DNA from: a virus | Lineage: Monodnaviria; Loebvirae; Hofneiviricota; Faserviricetes; Tubulavirales; Inoviridae | Direction: 5' to 3' (one strand) | Virus record (IMG/VR): IMGVR_UViG_2541047896_000001 | Coordinates: 1 to 8,206 of that record | Length of the DNA: 8,206 nucleotides | Shown: one piece after another, positions 1 to 6,125 of the stretch | Layout of the letters: each line of letters begins with the position of its first letter | Numbering within the stretch: the stretch's first letter is position 1 | Translations under genes and position numbers: made by a program | The notes under the pieces: generated by a model | The model's database searches: none | Seen by the model: the letters and a program-made list of their open reading frames with translations, nothing else | What the model was told of the DNA's origin: nothing

Positions 1-1035
1 TCATCGTATCGCCCCTGAATAAACCGTCACCGTTTCTCCGTCGATTTCACCCGTCATCATCATGCCGTCAAAGCTGAACTGAGAAGCCGGCTCTATACGC
101 AGCCTCCCGGACGTGTCAGCCACGACAACCCACGCCTGACCATCGCGTTTAAGCCGTCCGGCAAGCCGCCATTTGTCCGAGACAACGGGCTTAACTGGCG
201 CAGCAGGAACTGAAACCACAGTGTTATTTCCGGCGGGTAAAACTTTTGTCTGCTGTTCAGGCTCTGAACTACCGTTTGACGTGAAAAACCAGAACAGATA
301 AAAAATGGCAATTACCGCCAGAATCAGTAACCCGGCGGCTTTAAACCACAGCATTTTAGAACTGAAAATATTCTGGCGTTTATCAGTGACAAGCTCCCTT
401 CCCTGCCCGTTCTCATGGGATTTATATAAAGGAAATATCGCCTTGTCATATTTATTCTGATAACTGTTCGTCAGATTCGACTTAAACAGCTTGATGCCCG
501 TAAATACGTCAACCCGGTAACGGTTATGCAGCCCCAGCGCCACATGCTTACTCATGCGATACGTGGTTTCCACCCGGTCTTTGATGAATCGCGGAAGGTT
601 GGCAACAGACTGATTCATAACCACTAAATCGCAGGTCACGCCTGTCTTTTCATCAGCGAAATGACGATGTTCTGCAATGAAAGAGCGATGATTTGTGGGG
701 ATTCCTTTATCGCTCTCCCATATGCGCCATGCTTCATCAATACAGATTAAATCCCCCGGACGGCAGAACGTATCATCCGCAATGCCTGAATCCGTTTTGT
801 AGGGAAAGAAATTATCGTTCTGAACGTCTTCATTCTGAACAAGTAAAATTTCACCAAGTGATTCCCTGTCTGCCTTTTTAATATCAACGCAGTAATCATA
901 AATACTTTGCGTGGCAAGGCCGTAAATATTACTGACAATGCGACGCCCAGCGATACAGGCGGGAATAATGACGCTTGCCACCACTTCGTAAGATTTACCG
1001 CTTCCGGGAATGCCCACATACGCAGAAATAGCCAT
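1..1035 (-). CDS. Filamentous phage assembly protein pI / zonula occludens toxin (Zot) family ATPase
   Basis: ATG at 1035-1033, TAA at 3-1, 344 aa. N-terminal Walker A GIPGSGKS (aa 8-15) and Walker B-like LICIDEAW (aa 96-103); single hydrophobic segment LLILAVIAIFYLFWFF (about aa 236-251) followed by a C-terminal domain of about 90 aa. This domain layout and the last position in the morphogenesis block match pI/Zot. Confidence 0.85.
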   Translation of the reverse strand: MAISAYVGIPGSGKSYEVVASVIIPACIAGRRIVSNIYGLATQSIYDYCVDIKKADRESLGEILLVQNEDVQNDNFFPYKTDSGIADDTFCRPGDLICIDEAWRIWESDKGIPTNHRSFIAEHRHFADEKTGVTCDLVVMNQSVANLPRFIKDRVETTYRMSKHVALGLHNRYRVDVFTGIKLFKSNLTNSYQNKYDKAIFPLYKSHENGQGRELVTDKRQNIFSSKMLWFKAAGLLILAVIAIFYLFWFFTSNGSSEPEQQTKVLPAGNNTVVSVPAAPVKPVVSDKWRLAGRLKRDGQAWVVVADTSGRLRIEPASQFSFDGMMMTGEIDGETVTVYSGAIR

Positions 1036-1038
1036 AAA

Positions 1039-1326
1039 TTAACCAATCAAAGGAATGCGACGAATAATAAAGCGAGTTAACAATGCTGAAAACATCAGTT
1101 TAATCCCTTCCGTGACCATAAACAGATTCACGAAATACCATACGCTGTCCGGCAATGACGAAAATAACCCGGCAATATCAACAGACTTAGGCAGCAGTGA
1201 CGCCAGAACCGGAACAAACGCCTGTACGACAAAGTACAGGCCAAAAAACAGAATAAATTTGACAACCACCGTTCGCAGCACAAAACCCAGCGCCACGTTA
1301 AAGGCTGAAACCAGAATACCAAACAT
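1039..1326 (-). CDS. Minor coat protein pVI-like (Ace position in CTXphi), small hydrophobic protein
   Basis: 95-aa ORF, ATG at 1326-1324 preceded by GGAGG on the minus strand, TAA at 1041-1039 only 3 nt before the pI ATG. Strongly hydrophobic with multiple predicted membrane spans. Its position between pIII and pI is that of gene VI. Assignment is by position and composition, not demonstrated homology. Confidence 0.65.
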   Translation of the reverse strand: MFGILVSAFNVALGFVLRTVVVKFILFFGLYFVVQAFVPVLASLLPKSVDIAGLFSSLPDSVWYFVNLFMVTEGIKLMFSALLTRFIIRRIPLIG

Positions 1327-1336
1327 AACGCCTCCG

Positions 1337-3220
1337 TCACGCAGTCAGAATGATACGCAGCGAAATAATGCCCCAGATAAGCAGGAATACCGCTTTCAGA
1401 AGTGGCCTGATTTTTTCCAGAAGCTCGCAGTGAGAATCAATGGAATATTTATTGTCCCAGAGTTCGAACGACCATACCGGACACTGAACATCCTTCGATG
1501 AAATAATCAGATTTTTAATGTCCGGCATTAATTCCGTAATTGGCTTTAGAATTTCCTCACCTGTAGGCGGTTTTTCAAGTTCCGGCGCTTTAATGCCGGG
1601 GTCTTCGCCTAAATCAACAGAAGTATCGGTATCTGTGCCTGTACCAGGGTGTACACCTGTATCCGTTCCCGCACCGGGTCTGGCATTAACCCACGACTGA
1701 GGAACGACAACCGGACTATAAAGCAAGCCCTTATCAAGTTTTACGCCAACAGCATTAGCCGCAGCCGTCAGTTCAGCCGCCGTAAAAGGTTTATCAAGCG
1801 GTATCCCCTGATATCCTTCCTGAACAACAGTCTGACCTGCAAGGCCATTAATAAGATTAACCAGCGCAGCCGGGTTTAACTGTTCTTCCGGCTTGAAATC
1901 TATATTATCAATAACCTCGCCATTAATTACCTGAGGTAAAGTTGATGTATCAAATTCTGTATTAAAAAATATCTGGTCTTTAACATCCTGAACATCATTC
2001 GTCGTTTTATACACGGCCTTCTCAGGGTGGCAAATACTTTTCCACTGCGTTTTGGGATTATCAGCCGTACTGCCCGGCGCAGGTACTTTCTCGCTTTTAC
2101 ATAAATCCCATGAATTTTCAAGCGTAACCGTTGTTGTCGCAACAGATAAAACAACAGTTACAATCGATGAATATCCACCAAAATAAGGATTCGGCTTTTC
2201 ATACTGAAAGTCTTTAACGGAAACCGAATAAACCTTAAAATTTCTTGGCATCCTGATATGTAAGTTATTGTCGTCAGAAGCCTCATGATAAGTCACATTG
2301 GAATGAGAATAACCATTAATCGACTTATAAAGCGCAATCATTACCGGATTATCACTGACAAGTACAGCATCGCCCTTTGCATCCCTGATATCAGTCGAAT
2401 AAGGATATTTAGTACCCTTTACTGACACACGATATACATCATTCGGAAATGGCTGGCTTATCGGCGGTGGTGCATCAATATTGTAATAGGTTGGCGCAAT
2501 CTGAACAGGTTTAACCTGCTGATTATAAGGGTTTATCGAATCCTGAATATTCTTCGCAGAAAAGCCAGTAGCATCAGAGGGCAAATAAACAGCAACAGGG
2601 CTTTTAGGTGAAGGTGCAACAGAAGAAGTAACAGTAGCGCCATTGGACAAATTAAGTAAATAAGTTCCATCATCCTGTTTTATTCCACTTGTAATATATT
2701 CAACAGCTTTTGCGCCCTGCTTTAAAGCAAGGTCAGCAACGGAAATAACACCCGCAGCCTGCCCCAACAATCCCCATGTTGTCTGTCCGGCAGCCATCAT
2801 ATTACTGCCAAAACTTGAAATACCCGTAGATATCGAATCGTCAATTGTATGCTTCGCAAGGCCATAAGCAGCCGCGAAAACTGACGTTCCGGTGCAAAGC
2901 TGAGGGTTACCCACTTTCTCGCCACACATGCGGATTGAATCAAAAACGTCAGGACGTTCGCGTATAACCTCCGCAGCGACAGCGATACCCGCGCCCATAC
3001 CGAGAGAACTGGCACCCGTTGCGAACACACGCCCCGCAGATTGAGAAACAACCTGAGCTTCACGGGTTTCAACCATTTGCTGAATTACACGTCCAAATCC
3101 GTCTGCTGTTACTGCATCAGCATGTACACCGGATGAAACCAGTAAGGACAATATAGTAATACCTAACTTTCCAGACCCTGAATGACCGCCCAGGCGCATA
3201 AAAGCCCCCATAAAAAACAC
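1337..3220 (-). CDS. Adsorption / minor coat protein pIII-like (receptor-binding, virion-tip protein)
   Basis: Long ORF, 627 aa from GTG at 3220-3218. In-frame ATGs at 3211-3209 and 3199-3197, the latter preceded by a GGGGG run, are more likely starts. N-terminal signal-peptide-like stretch KLGITILSLLVSSGVHA then DAVTADG; Gly/Thr/Asp-rich linker GAGTDTGVHPGTGTDTDTSVDLGEDPG; C-terminal hydrophobic anchor LLKAVFLLIWGIISLRIILTA. Lies between pVIII and pVI as gene III does. Confidence 0.7.
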   Translation of the reverse strand: MFFMGAFMRLGGHSGSGKLGITILSLLVSSGVHADAVTADGFGRVIQQMVETREAQVVSQSAGRVFATGASSLGMGAGIAVAAEVIRERPDVFDSIRMCGEKVGNPQLCTGTSVFAAAYGLAKHTIDDSISTGISSFGSNMMAAGQTTWGLLGQAAGVISVADLALKQGAKAVEYITSGIKQDDGTYLLNLSNGATVTSSVAPSPKSPVAVYLPSDATGFSAKNIQDSINPYNQQVKPVQIAPTYYNIDAPPPISQPFPNDVYRVSVKGTKYPYSTDIRDAKGDAVLVSDNPVMIALYKSINGYSHSNVTYHEASDDNNLHIRMPRNFKVYSVSVKDFQYEKPNPYFGGYSSIVTVVLSVATTTVTLENSWDLCKSEKVPAPGSTADNPKTQWKSICHPEKAVYKTTNDVQDVKDQIFFNTEFDTSTLPQVINGEVIDNIDFKPEEQLNPAALVNLINGLAGQTVVQEGYQGIPLDKPFTAAELTAAANAVGVKLDKGLLYSPVVVPQSWVNARPGAGTDTGVHPGTGTDTDTSVDLGEDPGIKAPELEKPPTGEEILKPITELMPDIKNLIISSKDVQCPVWSFELWDNKYSIDSHCELLEKIRPLLKAVFLLIWGIISLRIILTA

Positions 3221-3243
3221 ATAAAATCAAAAAGATATTGAGC

Positions 3244-3273
3244 CATAAATATAAAGGGGCTGTTACGCCCCTT
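3244..3273 (-). terminator. Rho-independent terminator/attenuator downstream of the major coat gene
   Basis: On the minus strand directly after the pVIII stop: 7-bp stem AAGGGGC / GCCCCTT (3267-3273 pairing with 3254-3260), 6-nt loop, followed by TATATTTAT (3253-3244). Established knowledge: Ff phages carry a terminator after gene VIII that sets the pVIII:pIII ratio. Confidence 0.55.
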
Positions 3274-3284
3274 ACCTTTATGAA

Positions 3285-3533
3285 TTAAGCGCCACGAACC
3301 ATACGCAAAATCCAGCGGACACCCGCAGAACCTGCATACAGAACAATAAGAGAACCCGCTACCGCCATAATTCCGGTCAGGACGGAACCGAAATTAACGC
3401 TGTTAGTCAGCGGCGTAAGGTCAATACCTTTACCACCAACAACATCACCTTCAGCAGCAAATACAGCAGGTGCAGCAACAGCCAGAGTAAAAGCACCAAT
3501 ACGGGTTAAAACCTGTTTAGTCTTACCAAACAT
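3285..3533 (-). CDS. Major coat protein pVIII precursor
   Basis: 82-aa ORF, ATG at 3533-3531 preceded by AAGGAG on the minus strand. Signal peptide MFGKTKQVLTRIGAFTLAVAAPAVFA, then a mature peptide of about 56 aa with acidic N-terminus (AEGD), hydrophobic core (VLTGIMAVAGSLIVLYAG) and basic C-terminus (VRWILRMVRGA). This is the hallmark pVIII layout. Confidence 0.85.
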   Translation of the reverse strand: MFGKTKQVLTRIGAFTLAVAAPAVFAAEGDVVGGKGIDLTPLTNSVNFGSVLTGIMAVAGSLIVLYAGSAGVRWILRMVRGA

Positions 3534-3544
3534 AAAAACTCCTT

Positions 3545-3814
3545 TTATGCATTTCTTACGTGTTTAAGAATTTCACCTATTCCCTTTGCAAAGAGCCACA
3601 GGAAAAAGGTTGTCGTAAAAGCCAGCCCCCAGAATTGCGCCGCGACTGAATAATCAATATCGGGAACAGGCTTATCCTGAGAAACTACCGAAGACTGTAA
3701 TTTAACAACTTCTGACTTCGGTAATTTCAAAGTGACTTCATCGCATCCGTCAGGGCTGCCAAAGCTCATATTCGGATTGCAATATTTTGTCCTGATGATT
3801 ACCTCATCTGACAT
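3545..3814 (-). CDS. Small membrane-anchored protein of unknown function (gene VII/IX position)
   Basis: 89-aa ORF, ATG at 3814-3812 with AAGG-containing upstream sequence, TAA at 3547-3545. Soluble N-terminal part with two Cys (YCNPNMSFGSPDGCDE) and a C-terminal hydrophobic helix FWGLAFTTTFFLWLFAKGIG. Function inferred only from position. Confidence 0.5.
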   Translation of the reverse strand: MSDEVIIRTKYCNPNMSFGSPDGCDEVTLKLPKSEVVKLQSSVVSQDKPVPDIDYSVAAQFWGLAFTTTFFLWLFAKGIGEILKHVRNA

Positions 3815-3831
3815 AAAAGTATCGCCTTAAC

Positions 3832-4122
3832 TCATTCTAATAATTCAAGCAGCATATCAACGTTATACCCTTTAGACTGCTCACCTGTCTGCTTATCAGT
3901 GTATGGGAAACTCCGTTCATAACCAGTAATACGGCAATGTACGTCTGTAATTTCATCACCAATACGGCCTAATGGTTTCTTTGATTTAATACGAATGACA
4001 GGCGGAAAGCTATAAGCATCAGCCGCAGGAGAAACAATTGTTGTATAATAAAAACCGCCACTATTATTAAAGCGTTTAATCTTTCCGGTAACAGTAGTTT
4101 CTAAATTAAGTAAATTACTCAT
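3832..4122 (-). CDS. Candidate ssDNA-binding protein (pV / RstB position)
   Basis: 96-aa ORF, ATG at 4122-4120 preceded by AAGGTG on the minus strand, TGA at 3834-3832. Small, predicted beta-rich protein immediately downstream of rep, where inoviruses encode the ssDNA-binding protein. No motif-level proof of family. Confidence 0.45.
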   Translation of the reverse strand: MSNLLNLETTVTGKIKRFNNSGGFYYTTIVSPAADAYSFPPVIRIKSKKPLGRIGDEITDVHCRITGYERSFPYTDKQTGEQSKGYNVDMLLELLE

Positions 4123-4138
4123 AATAACACCTTATATT

Positions 4139-5254
4139 CTATGCAACTCGTAAATGAGACGGTTTTACATACCACGATGGAATAACACAATCAGAAACTT
4201 TAATCTCTCGCGTTTGCTTGACAACAACAGGAGAGAATTTCGAAACATTACATTTTTGCGCAATGTCAATACCAATCTTGCGGAGTCTTGCTCGATGAAT
4301 ACGCACTTGATTTTTACTTAAATCAAAAATATGACCATGAAACCATTGGATCGCATACATAGCTGTAGTATTAGCTGCCCGTGTAGTTTCAACTATTCCA
4401 CGGGTAATAAGATGTTCACTAATAGTTTCAAAATCCATAGCATTCACCGATAACTTTTCATCAAGAGCCAGAAAATCAGAATGTAACTTATTTAAGACAG
4501 AATAATCAGATAACCCCCAAAAACCTAGAGAGTGCTTTTGAATAAAACGAGACTTCAATTTTTGTTCAAATCTGACTATTCCATTTTCCTTACAATAATC
4601 AATCACACTAACAATATAATTAAACTCTTTTGACTGCTCAGAGAATTTATTTTTTATTTTTAATAAACTATGTAACTCAATCTCATGTGACTTATTATAT
4701 ACAGTCGGATAAATAAGATTAACATTCCCTTTTTTAGACAACCAGTCAACAGATTTACCGTTTGAATGCAACCGTGGGACACTATTCCTATAGGGTTGAG
4801 TCGAAAGCCCTGAAATATAATCATCCTCATTCCCTTTGCCAACAGATTTATTAGATGTTATATGAAGCTCTTTAATTAACGCCCCATCAGTTACCATATG
4901 GGCTTTTTCGGTTTCTTTAGACTGACCGGGCATTAATCGAGTGCATTTTGTGAAAACAGGCAATTTAAGATCAAGAAGGATCTTATTGAAAACCATAACG
5001 CAAGCATCAACAGTAGGTAAGCCAAATAAATTATCAAGCCGCCCCCACCGCGAGGGGTTGCCCGTCATTTTTAGAACAGATCCACGGATAGAGATAGAAA
5101 CGACATCACAGAAAGATCCCCGGTGCTGAAAAGTTGGCTGAGAAAGCGCACTAGCCTCACCACTTTCAAGATGAATACGCTGGTAAGCAACATCCGAGAG
5201 AATAGGAAGTTGAAAGCCGAAATCCTGTTCAATACTTAACCAGTCGAAGAACAT
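4139..5254 (-). CDS. Rolling-circle replication initiation protein (pII / RstA-like)
   Basis: 371-aa ORF, ATG at 5254-5252, TAG at 4141-4139. First gene of the minus-strand operon behind a near-consensus sigma70 promoter. The N-terminal region (VVSISIRGSVLKMTGNPSRWGRLDNLFG) resembles, from memory, the conserved N-terminal block of Ff pII (CVEIKASPAKVLQGHNVFG). Size and position fit RstA/pII. Confidence 0.75.
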   Translation of the reverse strand: MFFDWLSIEQDFGFQLPILSDVAYQRIHLESGEASALSQPTFQHRGSFCDVVSISIRGSVLKMTGNPSRWGRLDNLFGLPTVDACVMVFNKILLDLKLPVFTKCTRLMPGQSKETEKAHMVTDGALIKELHITSNKSVGKGNEDDYISGLSTQPYRNSVPRLHSNGKSVDWLSKKGNVNLIYPTVYNKSHEIELHSLLKIKNKFSEQSKEFNYIVSVIDYCKENGIVRFEQKLKSRFIQKHSLGFWGLSDYSVLNKLHSDFLALDEKLSVNAMDFETISEHLITRGIVETTRAANTTAMYAIQWFHGHIFDLSKNQVRIHRARLRKIGIDIAQKCNVSKFSPVVVKQTREIKVSDCVIPSWYVKPSHLRVA

Positions 5255-5377
5255 AGCGCCCTTTCTTAGATTCTCAGAAATTATTTCATGGTGCTTTTAT
5301 AAGACCTGAGAAACTAAGTGTCAACATTTCTAAGAATTTAGAGATATGATGCAAAGCTAGCAGAATGAGGAAAGAGC
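5255..5377. promoter_or_regulatory. Divergent promoter/operator region between rep (minus) and the small plus-strand ORF
   Basis: Minus-strand promoter for rep: -35 TTGACA (complement of 5319-5324), 17-nt spacer, -10 TATAAA (complement of 5296-5301). Repeated near-palindromic TTCT-N-AGAA motifs: ttcttagat 5264-5272, ttctcagaa 5271-5279, ctgagaa 5306-5312, ttctaagaa 5329-5337. These overlap or flank the promoter and are candidate operators. A possible plus-strand -10 TATGAT lies at 5345-5350. Confidence 0.55.
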
Positions 5378-5566
5378 ATGCCTACAAAGCACATAAACGA
5401 TGTTCAATGGAGAAAAATAGAGAAAGAAACCGTTAGAGCGGTATCAACCCTAGCTGTTCCAGTTAAAGATACCAAAATGCTCGAATGGATAATCGCCAAA
5501 GGGTTAGAGACGATCACAGAAGACGACTACCGCAAGTTCCTGAAGACAGAAAGCAAAAAAAAATAA
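5378..5566 (+). CDS. Small hypothetical protein, candidate phage regulator (RstR-like position)
   Basis: 62-aa ORF, ATG at 5378 with GAGG 7 nt upstream, transcribed divergently from rep as rstR is in CTXphi. Lys-rich C-terminus. No recognisable helix-turn-helix, so the regulator call rests on position only. Confidence 0.5.
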   Translation: MPTKHINDVQWRKIEKETVRAVSTLAVPVKDTKMLEWIIAKGLETITEDDYRKFLKTESKKK

Positions 5567-5758
5567 GCGAGCAGGGAAAAAATACGGGAAACCGTACTAA
5601 AGTTCGGGTGTCACAGAACCCCGAACCGCTTCGCGGCGAAAAAACGAACAACAGCAGAGCTTGCGAAATCGGAATTAAGATAAGCTGGACGTCAAACGAT
5701 TAAACAAAAATACGCCATTATGCAAAGATCAAATGACACACTCTAAAAGGTATAGGTA

Positions 5759-6025
5759 ATGAACAAAGACCAGATAATACAAGTACTTAATGAAACAGAG
5801 AATGACAGCCCCGTAGCAAGAGCAGAATTAGCAAGATTCCTCGTAAAAACAATCTACAATTTTGTAAAAATGGAGAGGCCAGAAGGTGAAGGTCTGGACG
5901 GACGTGATGGCCCAGAAAGGCGCAGCATGGGAAAAATTGTAGATGCGGCAGAAAACCACTACTTTAACATGATAAAAGAAAGCCATGAAAAACAGGGAAT
6001 TGGAAGAAAAAACCCTGAGGAATGA
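5759..6025 (+). CDS. Hypothetical protein, unknown function
   Basis: 88-aa ORF, ATG at 5759 with AAAGG 8 nt upstream, TGA at 6023-6025, immediately followed by the dif-like site and a hairpin with T-run. Charged, Glu/Lys/Arg-rich; no motif recognised. Confidence 0.45.
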   Translation: MNKDQIIQVLNETENDSPVARAELARFLVKTIYNFVKMERPEGEGLDGRDGPERRSMGKIVDAAENHYFNMIKESHEKQGIGRKNPEE

Positions 6026-6031
6026 CGCCCT

Positions 6032-6125
6032 AATGCGCATAATGACGTTATGCTAAAGAGGCCGCTGCGGGATTCTATTTTCGCAGCGGCCTTTTCAACA
6101 TAACGAGTCAAACATTATGCGCACC
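6032..6125. other. Xer-type attachment structure: two inverted dif-like sites separated by a GC-rich hairpin (attP-like / prophage-host junction)
   Basis: Site A, plus strand: 6032-6042 aatgcgcataa (9/11 to the dif XerC arm GGTGCGCATAA), 5-nt spacer, 6048-6058 ttatgctaaag (9/11 to the XerD arm TTATGTTAAAT). Site B, minus strand: complement of 6115-6125 = ggtgcgcataa (11/11), 11-nt spacer, complement of 6093-6103 = ttatgttgaaa (9/11). Perfect 11-bp inverted repeat 6034-6044 / 6113-6123 and 7-bp inverted repeat 6046-6052 / 6099-6105. The dif consensus is recalled from memory. Confidence 0.65.
6060..6095 (+). terminator. Rho-independent terminator-like hairpin at the apex of the attachment structure
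   Basis: 10-bp GC-rich stem GGCCGCTGCG (6060-6069) / CGCAGCGGCC (6082-6091), 12-nt loop, then TTTT (6092-6095), 35 nt downstream of the 88-aa ORF stop. It may serve both as a terminator and as the tip of the folded attP hairpin. Confidence 0.6.

Follow-up and report, generated by a model that had tools for sequence, protein, structure and literature searches.

A predicted repressor cassette lacking a recognizable helix-turn-helix and a separate cargo gene at the lysogeny-control position of a dif-integrated inovirus

The control of lysogeny and immunity in filamentous phages is understood mainly from the RstR repressor of CTXphi and a few analogues that carry a helix-turn-helix (HTH). What, then, is to be made of an inovirus in which the equivalent position is occupied by small genes of a different kind? 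This question is raised by the IMG/VR virus record IMGVR_UViG_2541047896_000001, the 8,206 nucleotides (nt) of which were analyzed here at their full length (hereafter, the window). As judged from its list of open reading frames (ORFs) and their matches to Pfam and PHROG profiles, the window contains the right-hand part of a dif-integrated inovirus prophage followed by host DNA. Between the replication gene rep and the end of the prophage lie two small ORFs of 62 and 88 amino acids, here called ORF62 and ORF88. The original prediction, made from the letters of the sequence, regarded them as one divergently transcribed module, perhaps an unusual repressor and its partner. We find that they are two independent units, split by the putative plus-strand origin of replication, and we argue that ORF62 probably forms, with its operator-like sites, an autoregulated cassette that represses rep, ORF88 being a separate cargo gene.

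Two genuine genes in two exchangeable slots

Both ORFs are real, conserved genes, located as the original prediction had placed them (Table 1) and divergent from rep. ORF62 belongs to phrog_5219 (E 5.1e-26, residues 1-62 against profile positions 2-63 of 63) and ORF88 to phrog_37184 (E 2.2e-62, residues 1-88 against positions 1-88 of 88), families that are both labeled "unknown function"; searches with the single sequences found 35 and 30 homologues, respectively. Among 54 distinct homologue genes of ORF62, the entropies of codon positions 1, 2 and 3 are 0.74, 0.49 and 1.53, the third position thus being two to three times more variable than the first and second, and the invariant N-terminus MPTKHI is encoded by all of the synonymous codons. 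Similarly, in seven diverse loci the ORF88 motif PEGEGLDGRDGPER is retained despite synonymous change. Taken together, the profile matches, the homologues and this selection at the protein level establish that both genes are genuine. The exact ORF62 protein is present on 352 contigs and the exact ORF88 protein on 140; their clusters at 90% identity extend to Escherichia, Citrobacter, Salmonella, Serratia, Enterobacter, Hafnia and Tatumella, with several members on contigs of ~7.7 kb. Of the two ribosome-binding sites that had been proposed, that of ORF62 holds (a GAGGA Shine-Dalgarno sequence at 5367-5371), whereas ORF88 has only a weak site of the AGG type. An overlapping ORF of 72 codons (5485-5703) was rejected as a gene, its sole "homology" elsewhere being to the DNA-conserved core of the origin that is described below.

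The comparison with sister prophages separates the two genes. The window and the sister phage L074 are 89% identical up to 5257, a point just beyond the rep start codon (5254); similarity is lost over 5258-5597 and then resumes at 98.7% from 5598 through ORF88 to the phage attachment site (attP). ORF62 and the upstream region of 123 bp make up this exchanged cassette. In place of ORF62, L074 has a 78-residue phrog_2503 protein accompanied by different repeats. A phrog_2503 protein with different repeats also fills this slot in the ETEC1749 prophage, and phage If1 has an unannotated 67-residue phrog_2503 ORF at the equivalent place (NC_001954, 5119-5322, minus strand). The slot of L076 contains a 177-residue regulator of the HTH_3/XRE type (29.9 bits against a cutoff of 23; phrog_3557, "transcriptional regulator"). 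The cassette is also found in other company: in L007 it lies (5264-5566, 74% DNA identity) beside an unrelated 666-residue replicase of the Phage_GPA family. ORF88 is thus kept beside three types of regulator, ORF62 in the window, phrog_2503 in L074 and XRE in L076; it retains 98% identity in L074 although the regulator cassette there has been replaced, and in L076 it is followed by an extra gene of 364 codons. In ETEC1749 its place is taken by unrelated genes of 136 and 68 codons. This independent exchange of the cassette and of ORF88 defines two separately exchangeable slots. The part of the original prediction that joined the two ORFs in one module of repressor and partner is consequently not supported, since the origin lies between them, each is exchanged without the other, and homologues of ORF88 occur away from inovirus genes.

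Two observations concern the phrog_2503 slot protein and its surroundings in If1. A guess that the protein of If1 and L074 resembles the ribbon-helix-helix (RHH) family was dropped, because searches of Pfam and PDB gave no confirmation. In the If1 record (L002, NC_001954), the "major intergenic region" and "ORF348" (5323-7300) resemble an insertion of the IS200/IS605 type, an assignment made by eye, with a TnpA-like ORF at 5388-5831 (minus strand) and a TnpB-like ORF at 6031-7086. This insertion is placed between gene II, which is split in the record, and the 67-residue ORF.

The ORF62 family and its operator-like sites

The ORF62 family comprises 70 loci in IMG/VR and 36 in the species genomes of GTDB, or ~90 nonredundant loci across the Gammaproteobacteria; an exhaustive profile search recovered at least 135 representatives of clusters at 50% identity. 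The genome loci are from Xenorhabdus, Pseudomonas, Aeromonas, Pseudoalteromonas, Shewanella, Haemophilus, Rodentibacter, Gallibacterium, Methylobacter, Kangiella and several Enterobacterales. In nearly all of the viral loci with enough upstream sequence, the homologue and a large gene on the other strand diverge across a gap of ~60-375 nt, and in the cases checked that large gene is Rep, either by its similarity to the Rep of the window or by Pfam. The original prediction had placed the locus at the position where CTXphi carries rstR, and this proved correct: the gene is divergent from rep and repeated sites occupy the promoter region that the two share.

These sites are strikingly concentrated. 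The window contains five exact matches to TTCTNAGA, all of them within 5263-5336, when 0.91 would be expected in its whole length, and none of 200 shuffled sequences reached five; neither the origin nor attP of the window has such a site. Upstream of the ORF62 homologues the motif takes the form TTCTNAGA(A). For 58 unique viral loci its density is 22.9/kb in the 150 nt upstream of the homologue versus 0.098/kb elsewhere, and a separate set of genomes gave 15.8 versus 0.19/kb (33 loci). The motif accompanies ORF62 across three Rep families (Phage_CRI/G2P, Rep_trans and Phage_GPA) and across hosts from Haemophilus to Pseudomonas to E. coli. It is absent from L074, L076 and If1, which have the same type of rep without ORF62; L074 and If1 carry ATGCATAC-like repeats of their own. 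In distant members of the family (L125 and L128, upstream of the homologue at 2501) four or five perfect tandem units of CTTAGAAA replace the palindromic TTCTNAGAA sites, which points to TTAGAA as the half-site.

The position of the sites relative to the predicted promoters is equally telling. One fills the spacer of the leftward rep promoter and others lie in the rep leader (Table 1), and the spacer of the rightward ORF62 promoter, which has a poor -35, holds TTCTAAGAA (5328-5336) and TTTAGAGA. When 69 upstream regions were anchored on a conserved GTCAA, the consensus was tTTCTAAGAAATTA, followed after ~14 nt by TTAG.TTCT.AGATTCTAAA-TGTCAAG. The TGTCAA that the operator-like consensus directly abuts is a perfect -35 TTGACA when read on the rep strand, and both it and the TA of the -10 are conserved among the anchored regions. 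A homologue with a fused C-terminal domain, P0171 (from a plasmid or island), is likewise preceded by a TTGACC/TATGAT promoter whose spacer contains TTCTAAGAA. A scan of the window for a LexA box found none. As far as can be judged from the sequence, such a placement of sites would be the standard geometry for promoter occlusion with autoregulation.

The ORF62 protein itself is less readily placed. As the original prediction had remarked, no HTH is recognizable in either protein: searches of Pfam, NCBIfam and the PDB sequences gave no match, and ORF62 and 21 of its homologues matched no HTH family even at E <= 10. The test was able to detect such a domain in this slot, because the slot protein of L076 matches HTH_3. 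Searches of the PDB sequences with the profiles A1, A2 and A3 returned chance matches only, and the PADLOC models matched neither ORF62 nor ORF88. The AlphaFold2 (AF2) model of ORF62 has an unstructured N-terminal heptapeptide followed by three helices (8-24, 30-41 and 48-60), with a mean predicted local distance difference test score (pLDDT) of 70 and a predicted template modeling score (pTM) of 0.30. In the homologues the N-terminus is an invariant MPTKHI[DN], basic residues are conserved (K4, H5, R12, K13 and K16), and the C-terminal helix is acidic and variable. The conserved basic residues and the invariant N-terminus suggest that an N-terminal arm and the first helix contact DNA. That ORF62 would form an RHH-like dimer is an attractive guess, which failed the sequence tests: profile searches of Pfam and of the PDB sequences gave no match to RHH families (RHH_1, Arc, CopG and others). 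One UniRef entry gives the exact ORF62 protein the name "Repressor", whether automatically or from its submitter; apart from this name, the literature yielded no description of the family and no paper on the peptide MPTKHI. Among the named phages of GenBank, only two metagenomic inoviruses have a homologue, in both cases annotated as hypothetical. Profile searches and structure prediction, the checks suggested earlier, have supplied PHROG families and AF2 models but no functional family for either protein.

The MPTKHID domain is also the N-terminus of larger proteins of 170-320 residues (P0129, P0171, P0138 and others; loci L086-L090), whose C-terminal domains are Walker-A/P-loop NTPase-like or unknown. 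These are encoded by plasmids, conjugative elements and islands, and one of them adjoins a SIR2-STAND gene. Such fusions to other C-terminal domains fit a portable DNA-binding module.

The putative origin, the cargo gene and the attachment site

The element between the two genes (5583-5637) is conserved in If1, L074, L076, L039 and L059. Its first hairpin varies through compensatory changes, its nick-type hairpin reads GTTCGGGG-TTCTGTGACA-CCCGAAC on the viral strand, and its fold as DNA has a z of -2.7. In M13, the nick position lies inside the corresponding loop. The M13 origin (NC_003287) has the same layout, GAGTCCAC-GTTCTTTAATA-GTGGACTC and then a TGTTCCAAACTGGAACA hairpin, and a hairpin nearly the same as that of M13 comes after the ORF62 homologue in several further loci, for example GAGTCCAC-ATACTTTAATA-GTGGACTC on the viral strand of L009. 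As in the Ff phages, a nick-site hairpin and an adjacent second hairpin lie upstream of gene II on the viral strand. On the basis of this layout and of the M13-like hairpins in related loci, we read 5583-5637 as a putative plus-strand origin with the nick site of Rep, its identity being established by comparison. The alternative that the conserved 56-nt element is a minus-strand origin of the primase/ssi type was dropped after these comparisons.

The origin core also occurs outside of phages. A total of 434 plasmid records, mostly from E. coli or Salmonella, contain it at ~89% identity (window 5587-5642; plasmid locus L084, 4001-4056), and 389 of these plasmids are predicted to be conjugative; the DNA in question is unannotated. 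On p1ColV5155 it is located 56 nt upstream of a gene of the STM4504/CBY_0614 family that matches the PADLOC candidate PDC-S32. On a plasmid, this element could let an If1-type Rep nick or mobilize the molecule; a role as decoy or sensor is another possibility.

ORF88 is modeled by AF2 as a helical hairpin (helices 18-39 and 52-78; mean pLDDT 87.5, pTM 0.71) whose tip is the invariant motif PEGEGLDGRDGPER. Pfam, NCBIfam and PDB sequence searches found no family match; structure searches returned generic hairpins only, and Foldseek against BFVD found nothing at E <= 0.001. A profile search recovered at least 148 clusters, and the family reaches the Actinobacteria (Acidipropionibacterium, Brevibacterium and Brachybacterium). 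Conjugative plasmids, of the IncF type and others, carry homologues, as do genomic islands and a conjugative element, in which the homologue lies behind the coupling protein; in these settings there are neither inovirus genes nearby nor an ORF62. Only 7 viral loci carry ORF88 versus 70 that have ORF62. In three instances, an ORF88-like gene is followed by one for a 364-residue phrog_17621 protein, in which two apparent membrane-spanning segments can be read by eye. Stated most cautiously, ORF88 is accessory cargo, in a slot next to attP, that acts via its conserved tip; an exclusion or anti-host function is possible.

The three phrog_17621 genes are located at L076 6298-7392 (the inovirus), at L085 2222-3316 (the Enterobacter IncF plasmid pMB9539_1, where the pair adjoins a TacA/TacT-like pair) and at L094 3425-4519 (an island beside umuDC). 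Two unusual predicted proteins come from contigs of ~1.2 kb, so that either could be an artefact of gene calling: P0235 is a tandem duplication of the ORF88 domain, which suggests that the hairpins pair, and in P0258 a domain of the ORF88 type is preceded by an Arc-like DNA-binding domain (PF03869).

The stop codon of ORF88 abuts a CTXphi-like attP, and so the pair of ORFs does end, as had been claimed, at the attachment structure. In CTXphi it is the folded single strand that serves as attP. The window has two inverted dif-like XerC/XerD sites at the end of the prophage, next to the host dif. Their arms pair (I1 88%, I8 100%) and their central regions are unpaired, and in this predicted folding the attP of the window matches the CTXphi type. 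A comparison of the tandem prophage junction in strain PEC148 with its right end, beside hipA, puts the junction of phage and host at ~6126/6127. The terminator-like hairpin between the two dif-like sites would terminate the rightward transcript.

Table 1. Features of the window (positions 1 to 8,206)
Feature	Position	Strand	Remarks
Zot-like pI	1-1035	minus	
pVI	1039-1326	minus	
pIII	1337-3220	minus	
pVIII	3285-3533	minus	
89-residue protein	3545-3814	minus	
Single-stranded DNA-binding protein	3832-4122	minus	
rep, gene II-type HUH replication initiator	4139-5254	minus	Pfam G2P_X_C 1.5e-24 and Phage_CRI; phrog_702 2e-104
Exchangeable cassette: operator-like sites, divergent promoters and ORF62	5258-5597		from comparisons with L074 and L007
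Distal operator-like sites TTCTTAGA and TTCTCAGAA	5263-5279		in rep leader; exact TTCTNAGA matches
Predicted leftward rep promoter	5296-5324	minus	-35 TTGACA 5324..5319, 17-nt spacer, -10 TATAAA 5301..5296
Proximal operator-like site	5303-5318	minus strand CTTAGTTTCTCAGG	fills rep promoter spacer; fits TTAG.TTCT.AGATTCTAAA consensus
Predicted rightward ORF62 promoter	5321-5350	plus	TCAACA, 18-nt spacer, TATGAT; promoter scan
ORF62	5378-5566	plus	62 residues, ATG; phrog_5219, homologues, coding signature
Putative plus-strand origin core	5583-5637	minus	hairpin 5583-5596, invariant AAAGT, nick-type hairpin 5602-5626, small hairpin 5626-5636
ORF88	5759-6025	plus	88 residues, ATG; phrog_37184, alignment, protein-level constraint
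dif-like site A	6032-6058	plus	inverted repeats I1 and I8
Terminator-like GC-rich hairpin	6060-6091, then TTTT (to 6095)		between dif-like sites
dif-like site B	6098-6126	minus	inverted repeats I1 and I8
Host autotransporter	6311-8206		

Near-identical prophages are present in three complete E. coli genomes, and the one of strain PEC148 is in tandem and adjoins hipA, in the neighborhood of dif. Among the structural genes, the receptor-binding pIII of the PEC148 copy (L001 5083-6942) has only 58% identity to that of the window and pVIII 84%, amid flanking genes at 97-100%, a pattern which suggests that the adsorption gene has been exchanged too. In PEC148 (L001 9880-11540) and ETEC1749 (L132 9340-11000), the prophage is followed by hipA-hipB and then by the autotransporter. 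The corresponding segment of the window (6127-6310) lacks hipBA and shares only ~80 nt of flank before diverging; a 57-residue ORF (6108-6281, minus strand) is left over there.

A probable repressor outside the RstR family and its alternatives

Our best reading is that ORF62 is RstR-like in function but outside the RstR family, and belongs to an uncharacterized non-HTH family; the suggestion of the original prediction that an unusual repressor might be found here has thus gained in strength, ORF62 being very probably such a repressor of the rep promoter. An ORF62 oligomer would bind the repeated palindromic TTCTNAGAA sites through the half-site TTAGAA, and in doing so it would occupy the rep promoter spacer, the rep leader and the spacer of its own promoter. 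Such binding would silence both rep and the phage operon downstream of it, and ORF62 would regulate its own expression as well. The dif-integrated prophage, or the replicative form, could in this manner be held at low activity, and immunity to phages with the same cassette would follow. ORF88 would probably be cotranscribed from the ORF62 promoter up to the attP hairpin; the ORF88 hairpin probably dimerizes to a four-helix bundle, its acidic, glycine-rich invariant tip forming the functional surface for a widely conserved target. We consider this explanation as a whole, the autoregulated rep repressor cassette with ORF88 as separate cargo, to be a probable one, though well short of certain.

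Several points weigh against it. The binding of ORF62 to DNA is predicted, rather than proven by experiment or structure, and ORF62 matches no DNA-binding family in Pfam, NCBIfam or the PDB sequences. The rep promoter was read by eye, and the promoter scan made no call there, having missed it because its -10 ends in A. Both the ORF62 N-terminus and the operator are nearly invariant throughout the family, an unusual property in a determinant of immunity; changes of specificity appear to come about solely by swaps of the whole cassette. No promoter specific to ORF88 was found, so its cotranscription through the origin is an assumption, and any function assigned to ORF88 is a guess.

The alternatives must be judged against the same observations. 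If the TTCTNAGAA repeats were bound by a host factor or by Rep, ORF62 could have an unrelated role in superinfection exclusion or against the host, and the small size of ORF62, its acidic C-terminus and the fact that its DNA binding is so far a prediction are compatible with this. But the motif tracks ORF62 through the whole range of hosts and of Rep families given above, and it is gone where ORF62 is replaced in an otherwise near-identical phage of the same host group, so that this explanation appears very improbable. ORF62 might instead bind the TTCTNAGAA sites as a Cro-like or activator protein, or as an architectural factor for the firing of the origin or for XerCD integration; its fold has no firm assignment, the cassette lies between rep and the origin, and the poor -35 of the rightward promoter could need activation. 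This we regard as unlikely, given that the sites fill the -35/-10 spacer of the rep promoter and lie downstream of the start, the classic geometry of occlusion, that neither origin nor attP has any, and that a standard protein of the XRE repressor type is among those that take the place of ORF62 in the slot.

Other alternatives concern ORF88. In the original prediction, the two genes formed a two-component lysogeny switch, ORF88 being a co-repressor or antirepressor. They are indeed adjacent on the same strand and probably share one transcript, there being no terminator before 6060-6095, and the fusion in P0258 offers a hint that proteins of the ORF88 type can cooperate with small regulators that bind DNA. 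However, this fusion is known from a single short contig and may be a gene-call fusion, and the persistence of ORF88 in L074 and beside XRE in L076, its absence from ETEC1749, its far smaller number of viral loci and its homologues on plasmids, conjugative elements and islands that lack ORF62 make such a switch distinctly unlikely. Nor does it seem probable that ORF88 is the first gene of an exclusion or defence module of two genes which has lost its phrog_17621 partner and survives as a non-functional remnant or a stand-alone antidote to that partner. The pair does recur, in L076, in pMB9539_1 and in the island next to umuDC, but most of the ORF88 homologues, including ones on plasmids and conjugative elements, have no such neighbor, the lone ORF88 is intact with an identical sequence on 140 contigs, and PADLOC has no model for ORF88 or for the 364-residue protein.

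A bolder joint reading, which we put forward only tentatively, is that MPTKHID is an unrecognized DNA-binding module of fixed TTCTNAGAA specificity of which mobile elements make wide use, and that ORF88 is an effector that works across phyla. MPTKHID alone would then repress the rep promoter in many inoviruses, and its copies on plasmids and conjugative elements would be fused to P-loop NTPase or other domains; the acidic tip of ORF88, in both Proteobacteria and Actinobacteria, would target a universally conserved machine of the host. One possibility is an anti-defence or anti-SOS role of ORF88 in elements that enter the cell as single-stranded DNA, namely inoviruses and conjugative elements.

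If the repressor reading is correct, the closest functional parallels are the systems of the RstR type. The operators of Arc and Mnt, which the operator-like sites of ORF62 may resemble, are short repeated sites containing TAGA, inverted or tandem, and lie inside promoters; Arc, Mnt and CopG also share with ORF62 a size of ~60 residues and a conserved, critical N-terminal segment before two helices. RstR of CTXphi, with its ig-2 operators, FpsR of the Shewanella phage SW1 and YPO2273 of Ypfphi are, like ORF62, encoded by a small gene divergent from the replication gene. Such systems resemble the window in their compact intergenic region with back-to-back promoters and several repeated sites, in the exchange of the cassette between similar phages (compare the heteroimmune alleles of rstR) and in dif integration through a folded attP (PMC4266046, PMC4762005). 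FpsR and YPO2273 were nonetheless rejected as relatives of ORF62, as they are described as HTH or RstR-like repressors (PMC4266046, PMC4762005). Unlike RstR, ORF62 has no HTH of the Cro/C1 type and is half the size, the window has no LexA box and its plus-strand origin is downstream of the repressor gene, and the operator specificity of the family is conserved rather than diversified. The Ff phages (M13/f1) share with the window the nick-type hairpin upstream of gene II on the viral strand, with a second small hairpin 5 nt later; they have no genes there, whereas the group of the window has the regulator cassette between origin and gene II and the cargo and attP on the other side. UPphi, Ypfphi and CUS-1 are similar to the window in their dif integration, tandem prophages and shared gene II/V replication module (PMC7307601, PMC4266046), but a DNA comparison detects no likeness to IKe in the structural genes of the window phage. 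In UPphi, there are unexplained reverse-oriented ORFs next to dif that vary among strains, one common and two rare (PMC7307601); these fit a picture of two slots, with h3-h5 of UPphi as possible counterparts of ORF88 and ORF62.

The analysis thus predicts that a second, widespread type of regulator operates in filamentous phages across gammaproteobacterial genera, including Haemophilus, Aeromonas, Pseudomonas, Salmonella and E. coli, and the concrete operator sequence and promoter geometry make the repressor hypothesis directly testable. The dif-integrating inoviruses of the enterobacteria are built with at least two independently exchangeable slots, one for a regulator and one for cargo, a view that helps to annotate the "hypothetical" genes beside dif in the UPphi/Ypfphi-like prophages of clinical isolates. 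In the second of these slots, ORF88 marks a conserved family of cargo that is common to inoviruses and conjugative elements.

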